From: an uncultured Alphaproteobacteria bacterium | GTDB taxonomy: Bacteria > Pseudomonadota > Alphaproteobacteria > Rs-D84 | Assembly (NCBI GenBank): GCA_944392815.1 | Contig: CALXXY010000001.1 | Coordinates: forward strand, 5,141-69,140 | DNA: 64,000 nt | Direction of reading: 5' to 3' | Shown here: positions 17,636 through 23,753 of the stretch, piece after piece | How the letters are laid out: each line of letters starts with the position of its first letter | Position numbering within the stretch: position 1 is the stretch's first letter | Position numbers and translations under genes: made by a program | The notes under the pieces: generated by a model | What the model was told of the DNA's origin: nothing | Database searches by the model: none | The model's input: the letters and a program-made list of their open reading frames with translations, nothing else

Positions 17636-17668
17636 AAGCGGGGCATACGCCCCGTTTTTTATTTCTGT
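17636..17668. terminator. bidirectional rho-independent terminator between bamD and rnj
   Basis: aaaagcggggcatacgccccgtttttt. The rnj stop codon lies in the T-run. Confidence 0.65.
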
Positions 17669-19500
17669 ACAAAATGTACACTGTATTGCGGTTTTTTATC
17701 CGCCCCCAGCGACGCGCGCACAACGCGATTGGATGCGCCCTGGACCGCACGAATCAGATTTTGTCTGTCCTTGCGTTCTGTTTTGGTCATGTTATCAATG
17801 GACTTGGTAATTTCAATCTGAATCTGGCGTTTCATGAACCCAGTGTCATCGGTTTCAAAAATACCGACGCTGGAAACTTCGGGGGTGCCCTTTAAAAATC
17901 CGCGTTTATCAACCGGCAGCGTCACGAATATCGCGCCGTTTGTTGCGATTTTTTTACGTGTTTTATACACAGGGTCGTCCGTGCTGCGTTCTGTTTCGCC
18001 CTCCATCACTACAAAGCCCGTTTCGATGGTTTCAGCGACATATGGGGCCTGGCCATCAGCCAACGCAATCATTTCGCCGTTATGCACGACCATCATGTAT
18101 TTTGCGCCGCCGCGTTCCATTGCCATTTTGCCGTTCAGCATTTCATTAATGTAATCACCGTGCATTGGCACAGACACCTGGGGGTGCACCATGTCATAGA
18201 ACCGTTCGAATTCCGGACGTCCCGCGTGCCCACTGGCGTGCAGATGGTCTGTATCATAAATCGTATGTGTTTTAATGCCCATACGCGCCAATTTATTGTA
18301 CAGGTATGAAACGTCCTGTTCGCGTCCCGGAATAACAATTGCGCTGAACAACACCGTATCCGTTGGTTGCAGTTTCATTTCCTTTACATGCCCGCGGCAC
18401 AGACGCGTCAACATAGCAAACTGTTCACCCTGGGACCCGGTCAGGAAAATGGCCTGTTTTTCTGCGGGCAAATCTTTGATTTCGCTGTGCAGATATACAT
18501 CGTCTTTGTCCAGATATCCGAACTCGATTCCCATTTCGCGGAATTCAGGCAATCCCACAAAAGGCACAGGGTTTGGATTACTGCGTTCCTTTATCGCGGC
18601 AACACGGCCGGCTGCACGTGCGGCCTGGGCGAACATCTTCATTCGCGCAATGGAACGTGAATATCCCGTCACCAACACGCGCCCAGGTGCGTTTTTCATG
18701 ATTTCTGTTAATGTATCGCGAACTTGTGCCTCGGTCGTTTGGGGTTCCTGGCGCGATGCAGATGTAGAATCAGACATACATGCCAACAATTTCGGATCAG
18801 ACCCAATTTCACGCAAACGCGCATAGTCGGTTGGATCCTCGATTGGATTGTCATCATTGAATGTCCAGTCACCCGTATGCAACACTTTGCCCGCCGGCGT
18901 TTTAATGATTAACATTTGCGCTTCGGGTACAGAATGGGAAACATGGAATGTTTCAACCGTAAACGGCGCCAAATCCAATGTTGCACCATGGTGGTCAAAT
19001 TCAACAATGTCTGTGTCTGGATTGAAATCTATTTCCGCACCACGGAATGTTTGGCGCAGTATTTCCGCCGGAAAACGCGTGCAGTAAATTGGCTTTCTGA
19101 ATTTCGGCCATACGAATTTCAACGCACCGATGTGGTCTTCGTGTCCATGGGTTAAAACGAAACCAATAACGTCCTTTTTGCGTTTTTCTAACCACGTAGT
19201 ATCGCAATATTGCACGTCGCCGGCACCAATTTCTTCCTCCAGAAATCCCATACCACAATCGACAACCAGATATTTGCCTTTGTATTTATAAATGTACATG
19301 TTTTGGCCGACGTGTTCCAAACCGCCCAACGCCATAAAGTACAATTTTTCATCATTTTTATCGCTTTCGTGTTTGTTCATGCCGGTGATTTTTTCCGGCA
19401 TTCCCGCGTCAGACGCGACATTTTCTGGCGCTGTTTGTTTTTTACGTACTTTTACCATAATAAATTCCTTTGTTTCGGTTATACTTTTGCGCCACCACAT
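17659..19500 (-). CDS. rnj: ribonuclease J (metallo-beta-lactamase/beta-CASP RNase)
   Basis: HGHEDHIG motif, beta-CASP region, 613 aa. The true start is possibly MVKVRKK near 19461. Confidence 0.85.
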   Translation of the reverse strand: MWWRKSITETKEFIMVKVRKKQTAPENVASDAGMPEKITGMNKHESDKNDEKLYFMALGGLEHVGQNMYIYKYKGKYLVVDCGMGFLEEEIGAGDVQYCDTTWLEKRKKDVIGFVLTHGHEDHIGALKFVWPKFRKPIYCTRFPAEILRQTFRGAEIDFNPDTDIVEFDHHGATLDLAPFTVETFHVSHSVPEAQMLIIKTPAGKVLHTGDWTFNDDNPIEDPTDYARLREIGSDPKLLACMSDSTSASRQEPQTTEAQVRDTLTEIMKNAPGRVLVTGYSRSIARMKMFAQAARAAGRVAAIKERSNPNPVPFVGLPEFREMGIEFGYLDKDDVYLHSEIKDLPAEKQAIFLTGSQGEQFAMLTRLCRGHVKEMKLQPTDTVLFSAIVIPGREQDVSYLYNKLARMGIKTHTIYDTDHLHASGHAGRPEFERFYDMVHPQVSVPMHGDYINEMLNGKMAMERGGAKYMMVVHNGEMIALADGQAPYVAETIETGFVVMEGETERSTDDPVYKTRKKIATNGAIFVTLPVDKRGFLKGTPEVSSVGIFETDDTGFMKRQIQIEITKSIDNMTKTERKDRQNLIRAVQGASNRVVRASLGADKKPQYSVHFVQK

Positions 19501-19883
19501 AATCCATTGCCAATAAAGAACGCGTCTTTATTTGTAGTGAATCAGTGGCAGCGCGGCTTTTGTTTCCCCCGCGATAATCAATAATAAATTAAAACAACGG
19601 GGAATTTTTTGGGACATATCCCAAATCTCTCTGACCCCAGTAATGTTAGTATATTTTCAATTAAATGCAAGAGATAATATTTTTAAACCTTGCATTATAC
19701 GTGTCGGAATAGTAATATACTTTATGTCAATGGGGGTTCCATTGATGGGGTGTGAAGACCTCTGCCTTAGCGTCGAACGGGAAAAATGGCGCTCCATTAT
19801 ACAGGATGTTGATTAAGTCCAAACGCGCATAAAACATACAAGAATTACTAGTGAGTTTTAACTTGATTGATATGTTATTATAG

Positions 19884-20987
19884 TTATATTAAGTATTGTA
19901 ATAATTTTTCTAACTGTGTATCATTTAATAGAATTATCTTGCACGCATTTGCAGCTTGTCTAGCAGATTTAGTAAAACCCGCATTAGATACAACAACACC
20001 ATAGTCACAATTATAAAAATCTCGTCCTGCATTTGCCTCTTGAACCGCTTTGTTACCTACAGGTTTGGAATATTTTTTACATTGAATAGCAAAAGATACG
20101 CCATTCTTTTTTGCTATCACGTCTGCACCCTGGTCCCCACTGGCTTTTGTAGTGCGCGCATTGAATCCCAGTGACTTTAATTTAATTGTTATGCTTTTTT
20201 CGTAATCTAATGGTGTAATATTTTTTTGCTTTAAATTTATATCAGGCATTTCCCACTTATTGACATACAAACTAAAAACAAGCTCTTTTACAACATTACA
20301 GGCATTTAAATACCTATATTCTTCCAAACGATTGTTTTCTAAAATGATATTTTTCTTTGCACAACTCTGGGTACTGATGAAAATAAGCTCACCTCTAATA
20401 TCATCTGTTTTATCTAGCATATTAAAATAAACATCTTCCATAATGCCAAAAGAACGATTATCTATTTTTATATCACTGTTGTCATCCGTCGCCACAAATA
20501 TGCAAAAATTGAAAAAGTCCGCTTCAAATACAGGATACAAATATATTTCCAAGGAATGGTCAGGGATATTTGAAAATAGTTTTTCGTAACTATTTTGTAA
20601 TGCTTCATTATAATAAGGTGTTGCGTAAATAGGCATCTCTCTAGTCAATACAACATTCTGAGCAAAATTATACAATTCGTTTATATAATTTTCATAATGA
20701 ATATATCCATAATCGTCTTCTGTTACTAACTGCAAAAATTTTGCATGCAGCGTGTTTTCATGTTGTTGAATTATATCATAAATTTGATTTACATATTCCT
20801 GTCTGTATGTGTTTACAATTTTTGTATGTTTTTTTAGTTTTTCTATCAGCATCCGTTTTTCATTTTGAATATTTTTTTGATTTTTAACATTTCTTGCATC
20901 GTACTCTTCTAGCTTCATTAACAAAAAAGCCACCAACAATATAGCGATAGCACTGACGACAACAATTATTCCAATACTGTTTAACAT
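19884..20987 (-). CDS. membrane-anchored protein with C-terminal Mrr_cat-type restriction endonuclease domain
   Basis: 367 aa. N-terminal TM helix (IGIIVVVSAIAILLVAFLLM), a coiled-coil segment and an unknown middle domain. The C-terminus GDQGADVIAKKNGVSFAIQCKKYSKPVGNKAVQEANAGRDFYNCDYGVVVSNAGFTKSA matches the Mrr N-terminal catalytic PD-(D/E)xK domain (D-x-D...QCK). The local DNA is strongly AT-rich compared with its neighbours. Confidence 0.7.
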   Translation of the reverse strand: MLNSIGIIVVVSAIAILLVAFLLMKLEEYDARNVKNQKNIQNEKRMLIEKLKKHTKIVNTYRQEYVNQIYDIIQQHENTLHAKFLQLVTEDDYGYIHYENYINELYNFAQNVVLTREMPIYATPYYNEALQNSYEKLFSNIPDHSLEIYLYPVFEADFFNFCIFVATDDNSDIKIDNRSFGIMEDVYFNMLDKTDDIRGELIFISTQSCAKKNIILENNRLEEYRYLNACNVVKELVFSLYVNKWEMPDINLKQKNITPLDYEKSITIKLKSLGFNARTTKASGDQGADVIAKKNGVSFAIQCKKYSKPVGNKAVQEANAGRDFYNCDYGVVVSNAGFTKSARQAANACKIILLNDTQLEKLLQYLI

Positions 20988-21146
20988 GTATTAATCCTTT
21001 TATATATTCTGTATTGTTTTAAAAAATCTGTAACTTTGATATCGCGTCCCTTTAACTCAATGCATACATATTTTAAAAACGCATACCGCATCATGCAGGA
21101 AACCAACTGGAGACAAAGCATAATGATAACACCAAAAATTTAAAGT

Positions 21147-21719
21147 TCATAACGTTCCCCTTTTATTGAATAAATCCGTTACGCCTGCAGCATCACCAAT
21201 CTGTTGTCCGTTCTTAAATCGCACAAAATGCCCCATGTTTTTCCCAAGTGCAATAAAAATGCCTTGTTTATAGTTGAAATACGTTCGTAAATTTTCAGAT
21301 GGCGCAGTTTTGTTTGTAAATATCTTTAATTTATTTTCATCGTGCGTCCAGTCATCATCGTTATGCCAATAGCCTTTCAGTTCTATAACCAGCATATTGT
21401 TTTCGTGTGTCCCGCGTGTATGCACTATTATATCCGGAAATACACGCCCTTTTTTCTCATCAGATGCCGCATAAGCATTATTACAGCCCAGATGTTTAAT
21501 TAGTTCTTCTCCAGAATTATCTGTGGCTTTGCCGTATTCACAGTCAACAGACAGGCAATCGTTATCATATCCATGTATATCCAATAGACGCTGTAAATAT
21601 CCTGCAATTCTAGATGCACACGTTCTTTCCAAACCGCCAATTTCAACAAGCTTTTTGTCGCGCTTATAGAATATTGCCACCGCGGTCTGTAATAGTTCAA
21701 ATATTGCTTCCGTGTTCAT
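21147..21719 (-). CDS. hypothetical protein, possible PD-(D/E)xK-fold nuclease-like protein
   Basis: 190 aa, encoded upstream of and co-directional with the Mrr_cat gene. FPDIIVH...VIELKGYW resembles the hhh-D ... hhh-E-x-K core. The assignment is tentative. Confidence 0.45.
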   Translation of the reverse strand: MNTEAIFELLQTAVAIFYKRDKKLVEIGGLERTCASRIAGYLQRLLDIHGYDNDCLSVDCEYGKATDNSGEELIKHLGCNNAYAASDEKKGRVFPDIIVHTRGTHENNMLVIELKGYWHNDDDWTHDENKLKIFTNKTAPSENLRTYFNYKQGIFIALGKNMGHFVRFKNGQQIGDAAGVTDLFNKRGTL

Positions 21720-22032
21720 TCTACTCGCCCCTTTTTAATTCAAACAAAAAACCACCTGACAAAGCGGGTGGTTGGAGGTTAAGAACTATAATCTGGTATA
21801 GCGAGCTTATTCAATATATTCACTGCCCTCCAACCATGATGATTGGAGGTGTTTTTATGTCCCCACGGACACCAGATTCAGAGGTTCTTACGCCCCAACA
21901 CGGCAACCGCCATGTCGCTTTATACTTTATCACGGACAAAAATCCCGTGCAAGCAGTTTATAATGCATACTATTAAACAATGAGGAATTTATATTCTGGT
22001 GCGGCCGGCGGGTTCCCTCGCGCGACACATAA

Positions 22033-22068
22033 TAAAAACAACGCCACAGTTTTGTGGCGTTGTTTTTT
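22033..22068 (-). terminator. rho-independent terminator downstream of tRNA-Arg
   Basis: Hairpin aacaacgccaca-gttt-tgtggcgttgtt with flanking A-runs and T-runs. Confidence 0.6.
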
Positions 22069-22072
22069 ATTC

Positions 22073-22149
22073 TGGCGCGCCCAGAAGGATTCGAACCCTC
22101 AACCTTCTGATCCGTAGTCAGATGCTCTATCCAATTGAGCCATGGGCGC
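22073..22149 (-). tRNA. tRNA-Arg (anticodon ACG)
   Basis: Reverse complement reads GCGCCCA-TGGCTCAATTGGATAGAGCA-TCTGACTACGGATCAGA...GGTTCGAATCC...TGGGCGC-G-CCA. The cloverleaf has a 7-bp acceptor stem, the anticodon loop is CUACGGA and the CCA end is encoded. Confidence 0.9.
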
Positions 22150-22205
22150 AACGTTCGTATATTTTATACGTTTTTGTCGAAATTGCAAGCAAAAATATAT
22201 GTTTT

Positions 22206-22796
22206 TTATCTGCTGCCATGGCCGTCGTTATGATGGCCGTGATACAACATATTAAAATGCTGTCTGCACACAGATTTATAATTGCTGTCGCCGATTGCAA
22301 TTTGTGCGCCTGCGCGAACAACATTGCCCGATGCGTCGTATCGCAAATGATGCGTCGCCAAATGCATACAGCCGGGAATTTGACACGTCGATTCCATGCG
22401 GTGCAGTTTGGCGCCAACCTCGATTAACCGGCGCGACGCAGGAAAAATATGCTCGTTGCTGTCTATCATTATTCCATAGCACATAATTATCACGGGGCGA
22501 CTGTCGGCAATACGCACCAGTGCATCTATGTCGTCCGGGGTAAAGAACTGGATTTCATCGATTAGCACCATTTTAGTATCTGGGGCCGGGGTCCACCCGC
22601 GTAATGTTGTCAGCACTGTTGCATCGGCGGAAATTCCGATACGGGAATTGACTTTGTTATCGCTGAAACGATTATCGATTTTTGGTTTTATGATTTCGGT
22701 TTTGTTCCCGTTTTTGTTTTGGTTGTACGCATTAATAACCAACTGTGCAGATTTCGAACAACCCATTGTTCCATAATGAAAATGCAGATTCGCCAT
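22206..22796 (-). CDS. tdk: thymidine kinase
   Basis: 196 aa with an N-terminal P-loop-like GTMGCSKSAQL and a C-terminal Cys-containing zinc ribbon, consistent with type II TK. Confidence 0.8.
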   Translation of the reverse strand: MANLHFHYGTMGCSKSAQLVINAYNQNKNGNKTEIIKPKIDNRFSDNKVNSRIGISADATVLTTLRGWTPAPDTKMVLIDEIQFFTPDDIDALVRIADSRPVIIMCYGIMIDSNEHIFPASRRLIEVGAKLHRMESTCQIPGCMHLATHHLRYDASGNVVRAGAQIAIGDSNYKSVCRQHFNMLYHGHHNDGHGSR

Positions 22797-22817: not shown

Positions 22818-23753
22818 TTATGATGCCATAGATTCCAAACGTGCTATGCGTTTTTCAACAGGCGGGTGCGTCGCCATCAGTGAACTGGCGAATTCGCGCG
22901 GACCACCCGGGTATGCGATGCACACCGCCGACATAGATTTTACTTTGTCCAAACATTCCACGCGCGCGTCGGTCGTGATTTTGCGCAGCGCGTTTGCCAA
23001 CGCCATTGGATTATGGGTTATTTGCGCGCCTGTTGCATCGGCGGCGTATTCGCGATTTCTGGAAATAGCCATACGTAAAACCGGCGTGATAATCCAGTTA
23101 AACACAAAAAACGCCAGCCACACCAACAACAATACCGCCACGCCACTGTTTTTGTTGTCACTGTCGCTGTGACCCGACGCCAATGCCACGCGCAAAATCA
23201 TATCAGCCGCGAACACAGTCACACCAACGCCTGTAATCAACATCATATCCAATCGAATGTCGCGGTTGCCTATGTGTGCCATTTCGTGCGCGATGACGCC
23301 CTGTAATTCAATATTGTTTAATTTTTTTATCAGTCCGCGGGTCAGTGCAACAGACGCATCGCGCGGGGTGCGCCCGGTTGCAAATGCGTTCATGGAATCG
23401 TCATCTATGATGTAAACACGCGGGCATGGCAATCCGGCCGCCATAGCGACATTTTCCACTGCGCGGAATATTTCGCGATTTTGTTTGTCGTCATCAAAAA
23501 TTTCATGTGCATGTGCAGAATTTAACATCATGCTGTCGCCAAATGCCCACGATATCAGCAACCATACCGCGCACGCGACAAATGTCGGAATTGCCACGGA
23601 AATTGCCGTGTTAAACGCTGTGTCCGCGGGCGCGACAATCCACGTAAACAAAAATATTAGCGCGATAAATATCAGTGGGAAGCAAATCACCAATAATATA
23701 GTTTTTATATTATTGCTGCGAATATGATCGTAAACTGTTTTTACATGTGCCAT
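22818..23753 (-). CDS. htpX: zinc metalloprotease HtpX (peptidase M48)
   Basis: HEMAHI zinc-binding motif and multiple TM helices. Length is 311 aa. Confidence 0.85.
   Translation of the reverse strand: MAHVKTVYDHIRSNNIKTILLVICFPLIFIALIFLFTWIVAPADTAFNTAISVAIPTFVACAVWLLISWAFGDSMMLNSAHAHEIFDDDKQNREIFRAVENVAMAAGLPCPRVYIIDDDSMNAFATGRTPRDASVALTRGLIKKLNNIELQGVIAHEMAHIGNRDIRLDMMLITGVGVTVFAADMILRVALASGHSDSDNKNSGVAVLLLVWLAFFVFNWIITPVLRMAISRNREYAADATGAQITHNPMALANALRKITTDARVECLDKVKSMSAVCIAYPGGPREFASSLMATHPPVEKRIARLESMAS

Follow-up and report, generated by a model that had tools for sequence, protein, structure and literature searches.

A strain-variable tRNA-Arg islet that carries a predicted membrane-tethered Mrr-type nuclease gene beside a divergent PD-Lambda-3_A-type nuclease gene in an uncultured alphaproteobacterium

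This report concerns a 64,000-nucleotide stretch of DNA from an uncultured alphaproteobacterium of the lineage Rs-D84 (contig CALXXY010000001.1), referred to as the window, and within it an AT-rich segment adjoining a tRNA-Arg(ACG) gene. The segment is a cargo islet that lacks an integrase and varies between strains. It occupies an insertion hotspot at tRNA-Arg(ACG) and carries two genes, here called geneA and geneB, whose products have the sequence features of nucleases. Judged by sequence comparison, they are two separately acquired nuclease genes that form a mosaic, not a co-evolved or obligate pair. The parts of the locus on which the argument rests are the following:

22073..22149, minus strand: tRNA-Arg(ACG), found by ARAGORN and by Rfam (tRNA, 68 bits); conserved flank and anchor of the insertion hotspot.
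22034..22067, minus strand: tRNA terminator hairpin with a 15-bp stem (inverted repeat I7, 100% complementary; terminator scan).
19690..22033, minus strand: inserted islet, 2344 bp, GC 0.351, delimited by BLAST against same-species contigs with an empty site (L018, L021 and L026).
21147..21719, minus strand: geneA, a 190-amino-acid (aa) cytoplasmic PD-(D/E)xK nuclease of the PD-Lambda-3_A superfamily.
21091..21150, minus strand: lipoprotein-gene remnant of 19 codons, MNFKFLVLSLCFVSSWFPA followed by a stop; its start overlaps the geneA stop (ATGA).
20988..21146, minus strand: spacer between geneA and geneB, 159 nt, GC 0.30, holding the lipoprotein remnant.
19884..20987, minus strand: geneB, 367 aa, predicted to cross the membrane once, with an Mrr-type nuclease domain at its C-terminus.
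20919..20975, minus strand: codons of the geneB transmembrane (TM) helix, residues 5-23, predicted N-out and C-in.
19899..20222, minus strand: codons of the geneB Mrr_cat domain, residues 256-363.

The islet stands apart from its surroundings in composition. A GC scan gives 0.28-0.35 over 19.5-21.2 kb against 0.46-0.50 on both sides, and among all 2.3-kb sub-windows of the 64 kb the islet is the GC minimum (0.34-0.35 against a mean of 0.464 with a standard deviation of 0.030, about four standard deviations below), so that the AT-richness noted in a preliminary description, a reading of the sequence alone, is confirmed by a sliding-window count. That description had drawn the islet as 19.5-22.1 kb; the AT-rich insert is real, but its borders are narrower. 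In the three empty-site contigs the junction joins window position 22034 to 19689, and because these strains place the insert at 19690-22033, the segment 19501-19689, the tRNA-Arg gene and the terminator hairpin belong to the conserved flank. The tRNA gene lies on the minus strand, its 3' end therefore pointing toward the AT-rich stretch; the insert begins 39 nt beyond that end, and the hairpin is the last conserved sequence ahead of it, homology with L018 and L026 stopping at 22034. The two genes differ in composition from the flanking genes and from each other: geneB has a GC content of 0.306 and a GC content at third codon positions (GC3) of 0.255, geneA has 0.389 and 0.34, and flanking genes have a GC3 of about 0.50-0.53. 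No open reading frame of at least 50 aa is found in the islet besides geneA and geneB, except those nested in or antisense to them, and the open reading frame list holds no integrase or recombinase gene there, as the preliminary description had said. The two-gene operon that it also proposed is not established, because 159 nt with a gene remnant divide the two genes.

The C-terminal part of geneB is matched by the Pfam family Mrr_cat (PF04471) over residues 256-363 with E=3.4e-23. E263, D285, D289 and Q302-C-K304 are invariant in an alignment with 37 relatives, and as aligned these catalytic residues fit an active Mrr-type enzyme. At the other end of the protein, residues 5-23 form its single hydrophobic segment (19-residue Kyte-Doolittle mean 3.24), with four residues ahead of the helix and with nine lysines and arginines against five acidic residues in the 30 positions that follow it. 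Because this hydrophobic segment precedes a lysine- and arginine-rich stretch, the short N-terminus is predicted to lie outside and the remaining protein in the cytoplasm. In the AlphaFold2 model (predicted local distance difference test score 78), residues 2-75 form a single uninterrupted helix, the middle is a mixed alpha/beta region whose confidence drops at 179-212, and the nuclease domain is confident. The TM helix, the unassigned middle domain and the Mrr_cat domain that the preliminary description had read from the translation are thus all present. The middle domain shows no recognisable fold, and in family searches DUF4041, a holin family, Mrr_N, PD-Lambda-3_B and HEPN are all without a match in the protein. 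PADLOC recognises residues 250-364 only (ZorD C-terminus, E=6.5e-17; PDC-S02, E=1.4e-11), the PHROGs match is likewise limited to the nuclease domain, and NCBIfam returns nothing useful for either gene.

The family to which geneB belongs combines a well conserved nuclease domain with a changing front. Among its members the nuclease domain is 70-80% identical, the N-terminal two-thirds are unalignable and variable in length, and the position of the catalytic motif ranges from residue 120 to residue 524; an N-terminal TM-like segment occurs in 70 of 117 relatives. A phmmer search with residues 30-255 against 1.84 billion representative proteins gave eight matches, all of them Mrr_cat proteins; this search gives no indication that the N-terminal and middle region is ever joined to an effector domain of another kind. 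Viral contigs with the same nuclease subfamily number 81, and of their 53 distinct proteins 42 have a TM-like segment or two ahead of the nuclease. The subfamily is also present in 342 plasmid records, every one of them annotated as "restriction endonuclease".

The product of geneA matches the PADLOC profile PD-Lambda-3_A with E=1.9e-13 and 48.6 bits over profile positions 20-131 of 159. A canonical member, encoded in L062 ahead of PD-Lambda-3_B, a HEPN/Hypoth_Ymh protein, reaches 322 bits, and because of this difference geneA is placed with PD-Lambda-3_A at the level of the superfamily only. The PD-(D/E)xK fold suspected at the outset is real: E31, D96, E113 and K115 are invariant in 43 relatives. 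The 190-aa subfamily is alphaproteobacterial, comprises about 15 clusters, bears an extra C-terminal extension and was found in just one GTDB species representative. The wider A-type family extends over at least 475 metagenomic loci, and among 80 of these loci the neighbour is a HEPN B gene in 10, the A-type gene lies between hsdM and hsdS of a type I restriction-modification locus in 9, and the other neighbours include a STAND NTPase and many unique genes. GeneA is the conserved opening gene of this group of tRNA-Arg islets and is probably a soluble nuclease module that acts independently of its neighbours.

The question whether geneA and geneB belong together was approached by comparing neighbourhoods in seven lineages of the geneA 190-aa subfamily. 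In four of them (L001, L002-4, L008 and L110/111) geneA overlaps by 4 nt with a gene for a lipoprotein with a lipobox (L-A/V-A-C), which is followed by a Slam outer-membrane protein gene, and in two of these four the arrangement occupies the same tdk/tRNA-Arg site. One lineage (L108/109) has a HigBA module nearby, and the remaining two carry a TM plus Mrr_cat protein, namely the window with L009/L010, and L005-7. The spacer of the window retains a trace of the first arrangement. For about 45 nt past the geneA stop it is homologous to the geneA-lipoprotein junctions of L001, L002, L008 and L110, with the same ATGA overlap, and then the homology breaks; these 45 nt correspond to signal-peptide codons of the Slam-linked lipoproteins. 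Because a 19-codon signal-peptide remnant persists, the arrangement geneA-lipoprotein-Slam is taken as the earlier one, in which an AT-rich geneB cassette replaced the lipoprotein cargo. Full-length homologues of geneB, furthermore, occur in three other contexts (L011, L012/13 and L014-16) with no geneA nearby, and a geneA profile finds no match in 52 kb around six chromosomal geneB-type loci or in 594 kb around 80 viral loci of the same nuclease subfamily. The small genes ahead of the solitary geneB homologues (153 aa; 67-72 aa) match neither a family nor the geneA profile.

Strain comparison shows how changeable the site is. An exact look-up of the window's thymidine kinase (tdk) protein led to ten contigs with identical tdk (L018-L027), which were aligned to the window by BLAST, and the site between tRNA-Arg and RNase J was found in four states: empty, filled with a cassette X, filled with a cassette Y, or filled with the geneA-geneB islet. 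It is empty in L018, L021 and L026, and L024 bears additional copies of the tRNA 3' end. Cassette X (L019 and L020) encodes two small secreted cysteine-rich proteins of 107 and 182 aa (L019 10408-11292), and cassette Y (L022, L023, L025 and L027) two lipoproteins (129 and 178 aa) together with two small membrane proteins (100 and 149 aa; L022 10124-11981); Pfam and PADLOC match none of these proteins. Over the initial 300 nt of the islet (22033-21733), the cassette-Y strains L022, L025 and L027 match it at 99% identity, which suggests that one leader has stayed in place while the cargo behind it was swapped. The tRNA 3' end with its hairpin (window 22020-22092) recurs at the distal end of cassette Y, with more copies in L020 and L024, as expected from repeated site-specific integration.

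Because strains with identical tdk have the site empty or filled by other cassettes, the islet is accessory. Exact geneB was found on 18 contigs, exact geneA on 17 and exact tdk on 115. Across species, the islet of the window is 89.7% identical to that of L009, at 76% identity for tdk and 79.5% for bamD, which points to transfer of the islet between species as far as sequence divergence can indicate it. Horizontal acquisition at tRNA-Arg, which the preliminary description had proposed, is thereby supported. In L001, from a related species, a gene for a 527-aa serine recombinase with Resolvase and Recombinase domains (L001 3739-5354) overlaps the 3' end of tRNA-Arg(ACG) at this same site beside tdk, and a homologue of geneA comes next; the recombinase is likely the integrase of the element family from which the window islet decayed.

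The preferred explanation, to which a probability of about 0.5 is assigned, is that the two nuclease genes of this mosaic islet each have a history of their own and that geneB is a stand-alone membrane-tethered defence DNase. The analysis itself establishes the composition, the borders of the insert, its variability among strains, the folds, the catalytic residues, the TM segment, the gene neighbourhoods and the lipoprotein remnant; for geneB we infer DNase activity, membrane topology, an anti-phage function and action at DNA entry. In this model, geneB would be a single-pass inner-membrane protein with a very short periplasmic N-terminus, a TM helix (5-23) continuing as a long stalk helix to about residue 75, a rapidly evolving middle region, and a cytoplasmic DNase. 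The tether would keep the DNase away from the nucleoid and at the entry point of phage or plasmid DNA, the choice of entry machinery to be recognised would lie with the variable N-terminal and middle parts, and geneB, acting alone, would cut incoming phage DNA at the membrane. The earlier partner of geneA would have been a Slam-dependent surface-lipoprotein operon, later displaced by the geneB cassette.

By analogy, this logic would fit the one shown for SNIPE and is consistent with the membrane-bound protein Epona. SNIPE, which is PD-lambda-1, is anchored by a TM segment that leaves its N-terminus in the periplasm; a DUF4041 domain in the cytoplasm and a GIY-YIG nuclease follow, and it cuts phage DNA during injection (PMC13190303). 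Its homologues have one TM domain in 59% and two in 7% of cases, with a conserved nuclease and a variable N-terminus, and it is the only mechanistically studied TM-anchored single-gene nuclease, its defence being direct and not abortive (PMC13190303). Like SNIPE, geneB is a single gene whose product has a predicted N-out/C-in anchor at the N-terminus and continues through a long helix and a middle domain to a nuclease at the C-terminus, and its family likewise combines a TM segment in about 60% of members with a conserved nuclease and a variable N-terminus. Unlike SNIPE, it has an Mrr_cat (PD-(D/E)xK) and not a GIY-YIG nuclease, and DUF4041 was not detected; the two are not homologous and are alike only in architecture and in presumed logic. 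Epona, from a cassette of the Vibrio cholerae superintegron, fuses a holin-like domain with two TM segments to Mrr_cat and protects against phage (bioRxiv 10.1101/2024.07.02.601686). With Epona, compared here by its description, geneB shares the union of Mrr_cat and a membrane-spanning segment in one protein, and many viral-contig relatives of the geneB nuclease have two TM segments as Epona does, whereas geneB itself has one TM segment, followed by about 230 residues of stalk and middle region, and matches no holin family.

Further parallels are confined to single parts. From the type IV enzyme Mrr, with which it shares an Mrr_cat domain and its D...QxK motif, geneB differs in that a TM helix and an unassigned region replace the N-terminal winged-helix (Mrr_N) DNA-binding domain. 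The likeness to ZorD is limited to the C-terminal nuclease, and geneB has no helicase. PDC-S02, to our knowledge an untested candidate, is of similar length and has a C-terminal Mrr-like domain, and the N-terminal two-thirds of geneB are unmatched. On the side of geneA, the comparison is with PD-lambda-3, which the supplement of Vassallo et al. 2022 lists as "Nuclease, HEPN" (PMC9519451) and which was seen to defend by abortive infection (Saxton et al., Nature 2026; PMC13190303). The likeness comprises the PD-Lambda-3_A match and the common invariant PD-(D/E)xK residues, and some PD-lambda-3 operons include an Mrr_cat protein; PADLOC defines the system as A plus B, however, and the HEPN/Hypoth_Ymh partner PD-Lambda-3_B is absent from the islet. 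The preliminary statement that the architecture is not recognisable as any named defence system is not supported, as its parts resemble PD-Lambda-3_A and the published anti-phage proteins Epona and SNIPE.

Several observations weigh against two unconnected genes with a defence role for geneB, and most of them speak for a cooperating two-nuclease system, in which geneA and a tethered geneB would divide the work, for example with detection or processing of DNA left to one and cleavage to the other, as a membrane-localised relative of PD-lambda-3 without HEPN. In the divergent lineage L005-7, a geneA 42% identical to that of the window overlaps by 4 nt, stop codon with start codon, with the gene of a 465-aa TM plus Mrr_cat partner. 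In L100, a geneA-like gene (PADLOC E=2.9e-27) stands divergently and 52 nt away from a 171-aa Mrr_cat gene (E=1.5e-31), and in the PD-lambda-3 operons of L064, L079, L082 and L084 a 477-aa Mrr_cat plus beta-propeller gene lies downstream of the HEPN gene. The lengths of genes A and B and of this propeller gene sum to the 2759-nt interval cloned as PD-lambda-3 of E. coli, which encodes the three proteins RCP74640-42, and from that length fit we infer that the propeller protein is the third PD-lambda-3 gene, which the paper itself does not state. All five Mrr_cat matches in 393 kb around geneA-like genes fall within two genes of them. The unrelated arrangements in L005-7, in L100 and in the PD-lambda-3 operons put A-type genes beside Mrr_cat proteins more often than one would expect of chance alone and speak in favour of a functional connection of some sort. 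GeneA is likewise present, at an unchanged site and 159 nt away, on each of the ten contigs sampled for exact geneB, which weighs little because those contigs are one haplotype. The cooperating system is kept as the main rival because A-type genes recur beside Mrr_cat proteins, and it is regarded as a tentative possibility. Against it, the lipoprotein remnant shows that the adjacency in the window arose by cassette replacement; a 159-nt gap and differing GC3 values (0.34 against 0.255) separate the genes; four of seven geneA lineages have a lipoprotein and Slam instead and one has HigBA nearby; no geneA-like gene lies near the 80 viral or six chromosomal geneB-type loci; and geneA-like genes stand beside hsdM/hsdS, HEPN genes and STAND NTPases, as a promiscuous stand-alone module would. 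A wider form of the same idea, somewhat more doubtful, is that PD-Lambda-3_A-type and Mrr_cat nucleases are a recurrent two-nuclease core that occurs with a beta-propeller in PD-lambda-3, bare in L100 and TM-anchored in L005-7 and the window; if so, the window would hold a HEPN-less, membrane-localised member in which a soluble and a tethered nuclease cooperate at DNA entry. The defence effector pair of the preliminary description accordingly survives in one half: a defence role is the best reading, but the lipoprotein remnant and the geneB relatives without geneA speak against a co-evolved or obligate pair, and counterparts of the two genes do co-occur elsewhere (L009/L010 and L005-7) while full-length geneB relatives in L011-L016 lack geneA.

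Sequence alone cannot separate direct from abortive defence by geneB. As an abortive-infection effector, geneB would be inactive at the membrane until phage-induced membrane damage or proteolysis led to degradation of host and phage DNA and to cell death. PD-lambda-3, to which geneA is distantly related, defends by abortive infection, and SNIPE deprived of its TM segment is toxic, nucleoid-bound and cuts host DNA (PMC13190303), so that release of a tethered nuclease would be lethal; Epona, too, joins Mrr_cat to a holin-like domain. This is nevertheless considered unlikely: the sequence reveals no release mechanism, a protease partner is not present, and SNIPE, the TM-anchored single-gene nuclease, defends directly. 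Less likely again is the absence of any defence role, with the genes serving a decayed integrative element in its own spread or upkeep (for example by addiction or as a homing-type nuclease) or with geneB as a membrane nuclease of DNA uptake or processing. It would agree with geneA being the conserved first gene beside the recombinase of L001, and two further points that count against the preferred explanation belong here. In PADLOC the match to geneB stops at the nuclease domain and no complete defence system is called, and the other hotspot cassettes encode lipoproteins and small secreted or membrane proteins, envelope cargo with no recognisable defence genes, for which reason the hotspot is not a classical defence island. 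On the other side, the geneB nuclease is predicted to be cytoplasmic, unlike the outward-facing competence nucleases, viral contigs and plasmids often carry its subfamily, the wider geneA family occurs in type I restriction-modification loci and PD-lambda-3 operons, and hypervariable N-termini on a conserved nuclease are typical of arms-race genes. A toxin-immunity pair had also been suggested at the outset. In such a pair, or in a toxin-antitoxin one, geneA would neutralise a toxic geneB or vice versa; the adjacency of two small genes on an accessory islet and the HigBA module near the geneA homologue in L108/109 could be cited for it. It is very improbable: the active site of geneA is complete and invariant, unlike that of an antitoxin, a Pfam search finds a secretion or delivery domain in neither protein, and the genes are commonly found without each other and lie 159 nt apart.

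If geneB works as proposed for a stand-alone tethered DNase, membrane-tethered defence by location would extend beyond the GIY-YIG/DUF4041 protein SNIPE and would have arisen independently with an Mrr-type nuclease, which would broaden a recently discovered form of self/non-self discrimination. Membrane-tethered defence nucleases as such are known; what appears to be new, as read from the two sequences, is an Mrr_cat version with a long middle region, next to a divergent orphan of the PD-Lambda-3_A superfamily. The geneB family is large and poorly annotated (as "restriction endonuclease" only), has a TM segment in about 60% of its members and is common on prophages and plasmids. The hotspot, furthermore, constitutes a clean natural experiment, in that strains nearly identical elsewhere have it either empty or filled with one of three alternative cassettes, and it could serve to test the roles of such islets in uncultured gut alphaproteobacteria. 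The association of geneA with a lipoprotein and Slam is unexplained and deserves a separate look; we know of no explanation for the linkage of a soluble nuclease to a surface-lipoprotein export operon.

Some observations concern the relatives of these genes and their surroundings. The junction between lipoprotein and Slam genes (SlipAM/TPR_Slam) is overlapping like that between geneA and the lipoprotein gene (L001 5989-8866; L002 476-2990; L008 113-3374; L110 5001-7851). The Slam-linked lipoproteins (L001 6570-7514; L002 1045-2052; L008 640-2037) have a common N-terminal motif, SAYEIWLxxGNVGTEQDF, which may resemble a motif of phage tail-fibre proteins. PD-Lambda-3_A-type small nucleases between hsdM and hsdS were seen in L046, L051, L065 (2527-6691), L069, L074 and L078. 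Canonical PD-lambda-3 operons (L064 431-4206; L079, L082 and L084) are flanked by restriction-endonuclease-like genes outside the PADLOC models: upstream of PD-Lambda-3_A lies a 312-aa protein with the motif GGDQGRD...IIQCAN, and downstream, in some loci, the 477-aa Mrr_cat-propeller protein. For the 312-aa protein, hhalign gives a motif-level match to Mrr only (E=0.007, probability 5%), and Pfam and PDB give no match. The 63.6-kb contig L009, which carries the 89.7%-identical islet, also encodes a second geneB paralogue, 45% identical (L009 8001-9104 and elsewhere on the contig, P0013), and these alphaproteobacteria may carry several membrane Mrr_cat genes per genome. All cargo seen at the hotspot, geneB included, is located at the cell envelope.

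The remaining features of the locus lie in the leader, the spacer, the tail of the islet and the flanks:

21720..22033, minus strand: leader segment, with a degenerate tRNA 3'-end copy, a repeat of about 95 nt, a promoter-like site and a terminator-like hairpin.
21988-22006: degenerate 19-nt copy of the tRNA 3' end near the left end of the islet, the only such copy in the window.
21785-21814: promoter-like site in the leader (promoter scan).
21752-21767: terminator-like hairpin in the leader (terminator scan).
21086-21098: weak terminator-like hairpin in the spacer (terminator scan).
19690..19883, minus strand: non-coding right tail of the islet, partly common to the cassette-X strains (to 19792 in L019, to 19753 in L020).
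17659-19500: RNase J gene.
22206-22796: thymidine kinase gene (tdk).
22818-23753: HtpX gene.

A pair of flanking repeats, 19586-19607 and 21969-21990 (73% identical), was rejected, the first copy lying in the conserved flank outside the insert. A permissive-threshold Rfam search of 19300-22400 returns the tRNA only, the leader matching no RNA family, and the leader RNA folds with z=-2.7. Within it, the element of about 95 nt (21746-21838, minus strand; repeat D7) comprises a hairpin, CACCTCCAA...TTGGAGGG, and a terminator-like stem with a T-run. It is repeated in the same genome ahead of unrelated genes at 80-92% identity (L021 15515-15608; L018 5425-5464), and could be a repeat of the repetitive extragenic palindrome (REP) or miniature inverted-repeat transposable element (MITE) kind, or a shared 5' leader.

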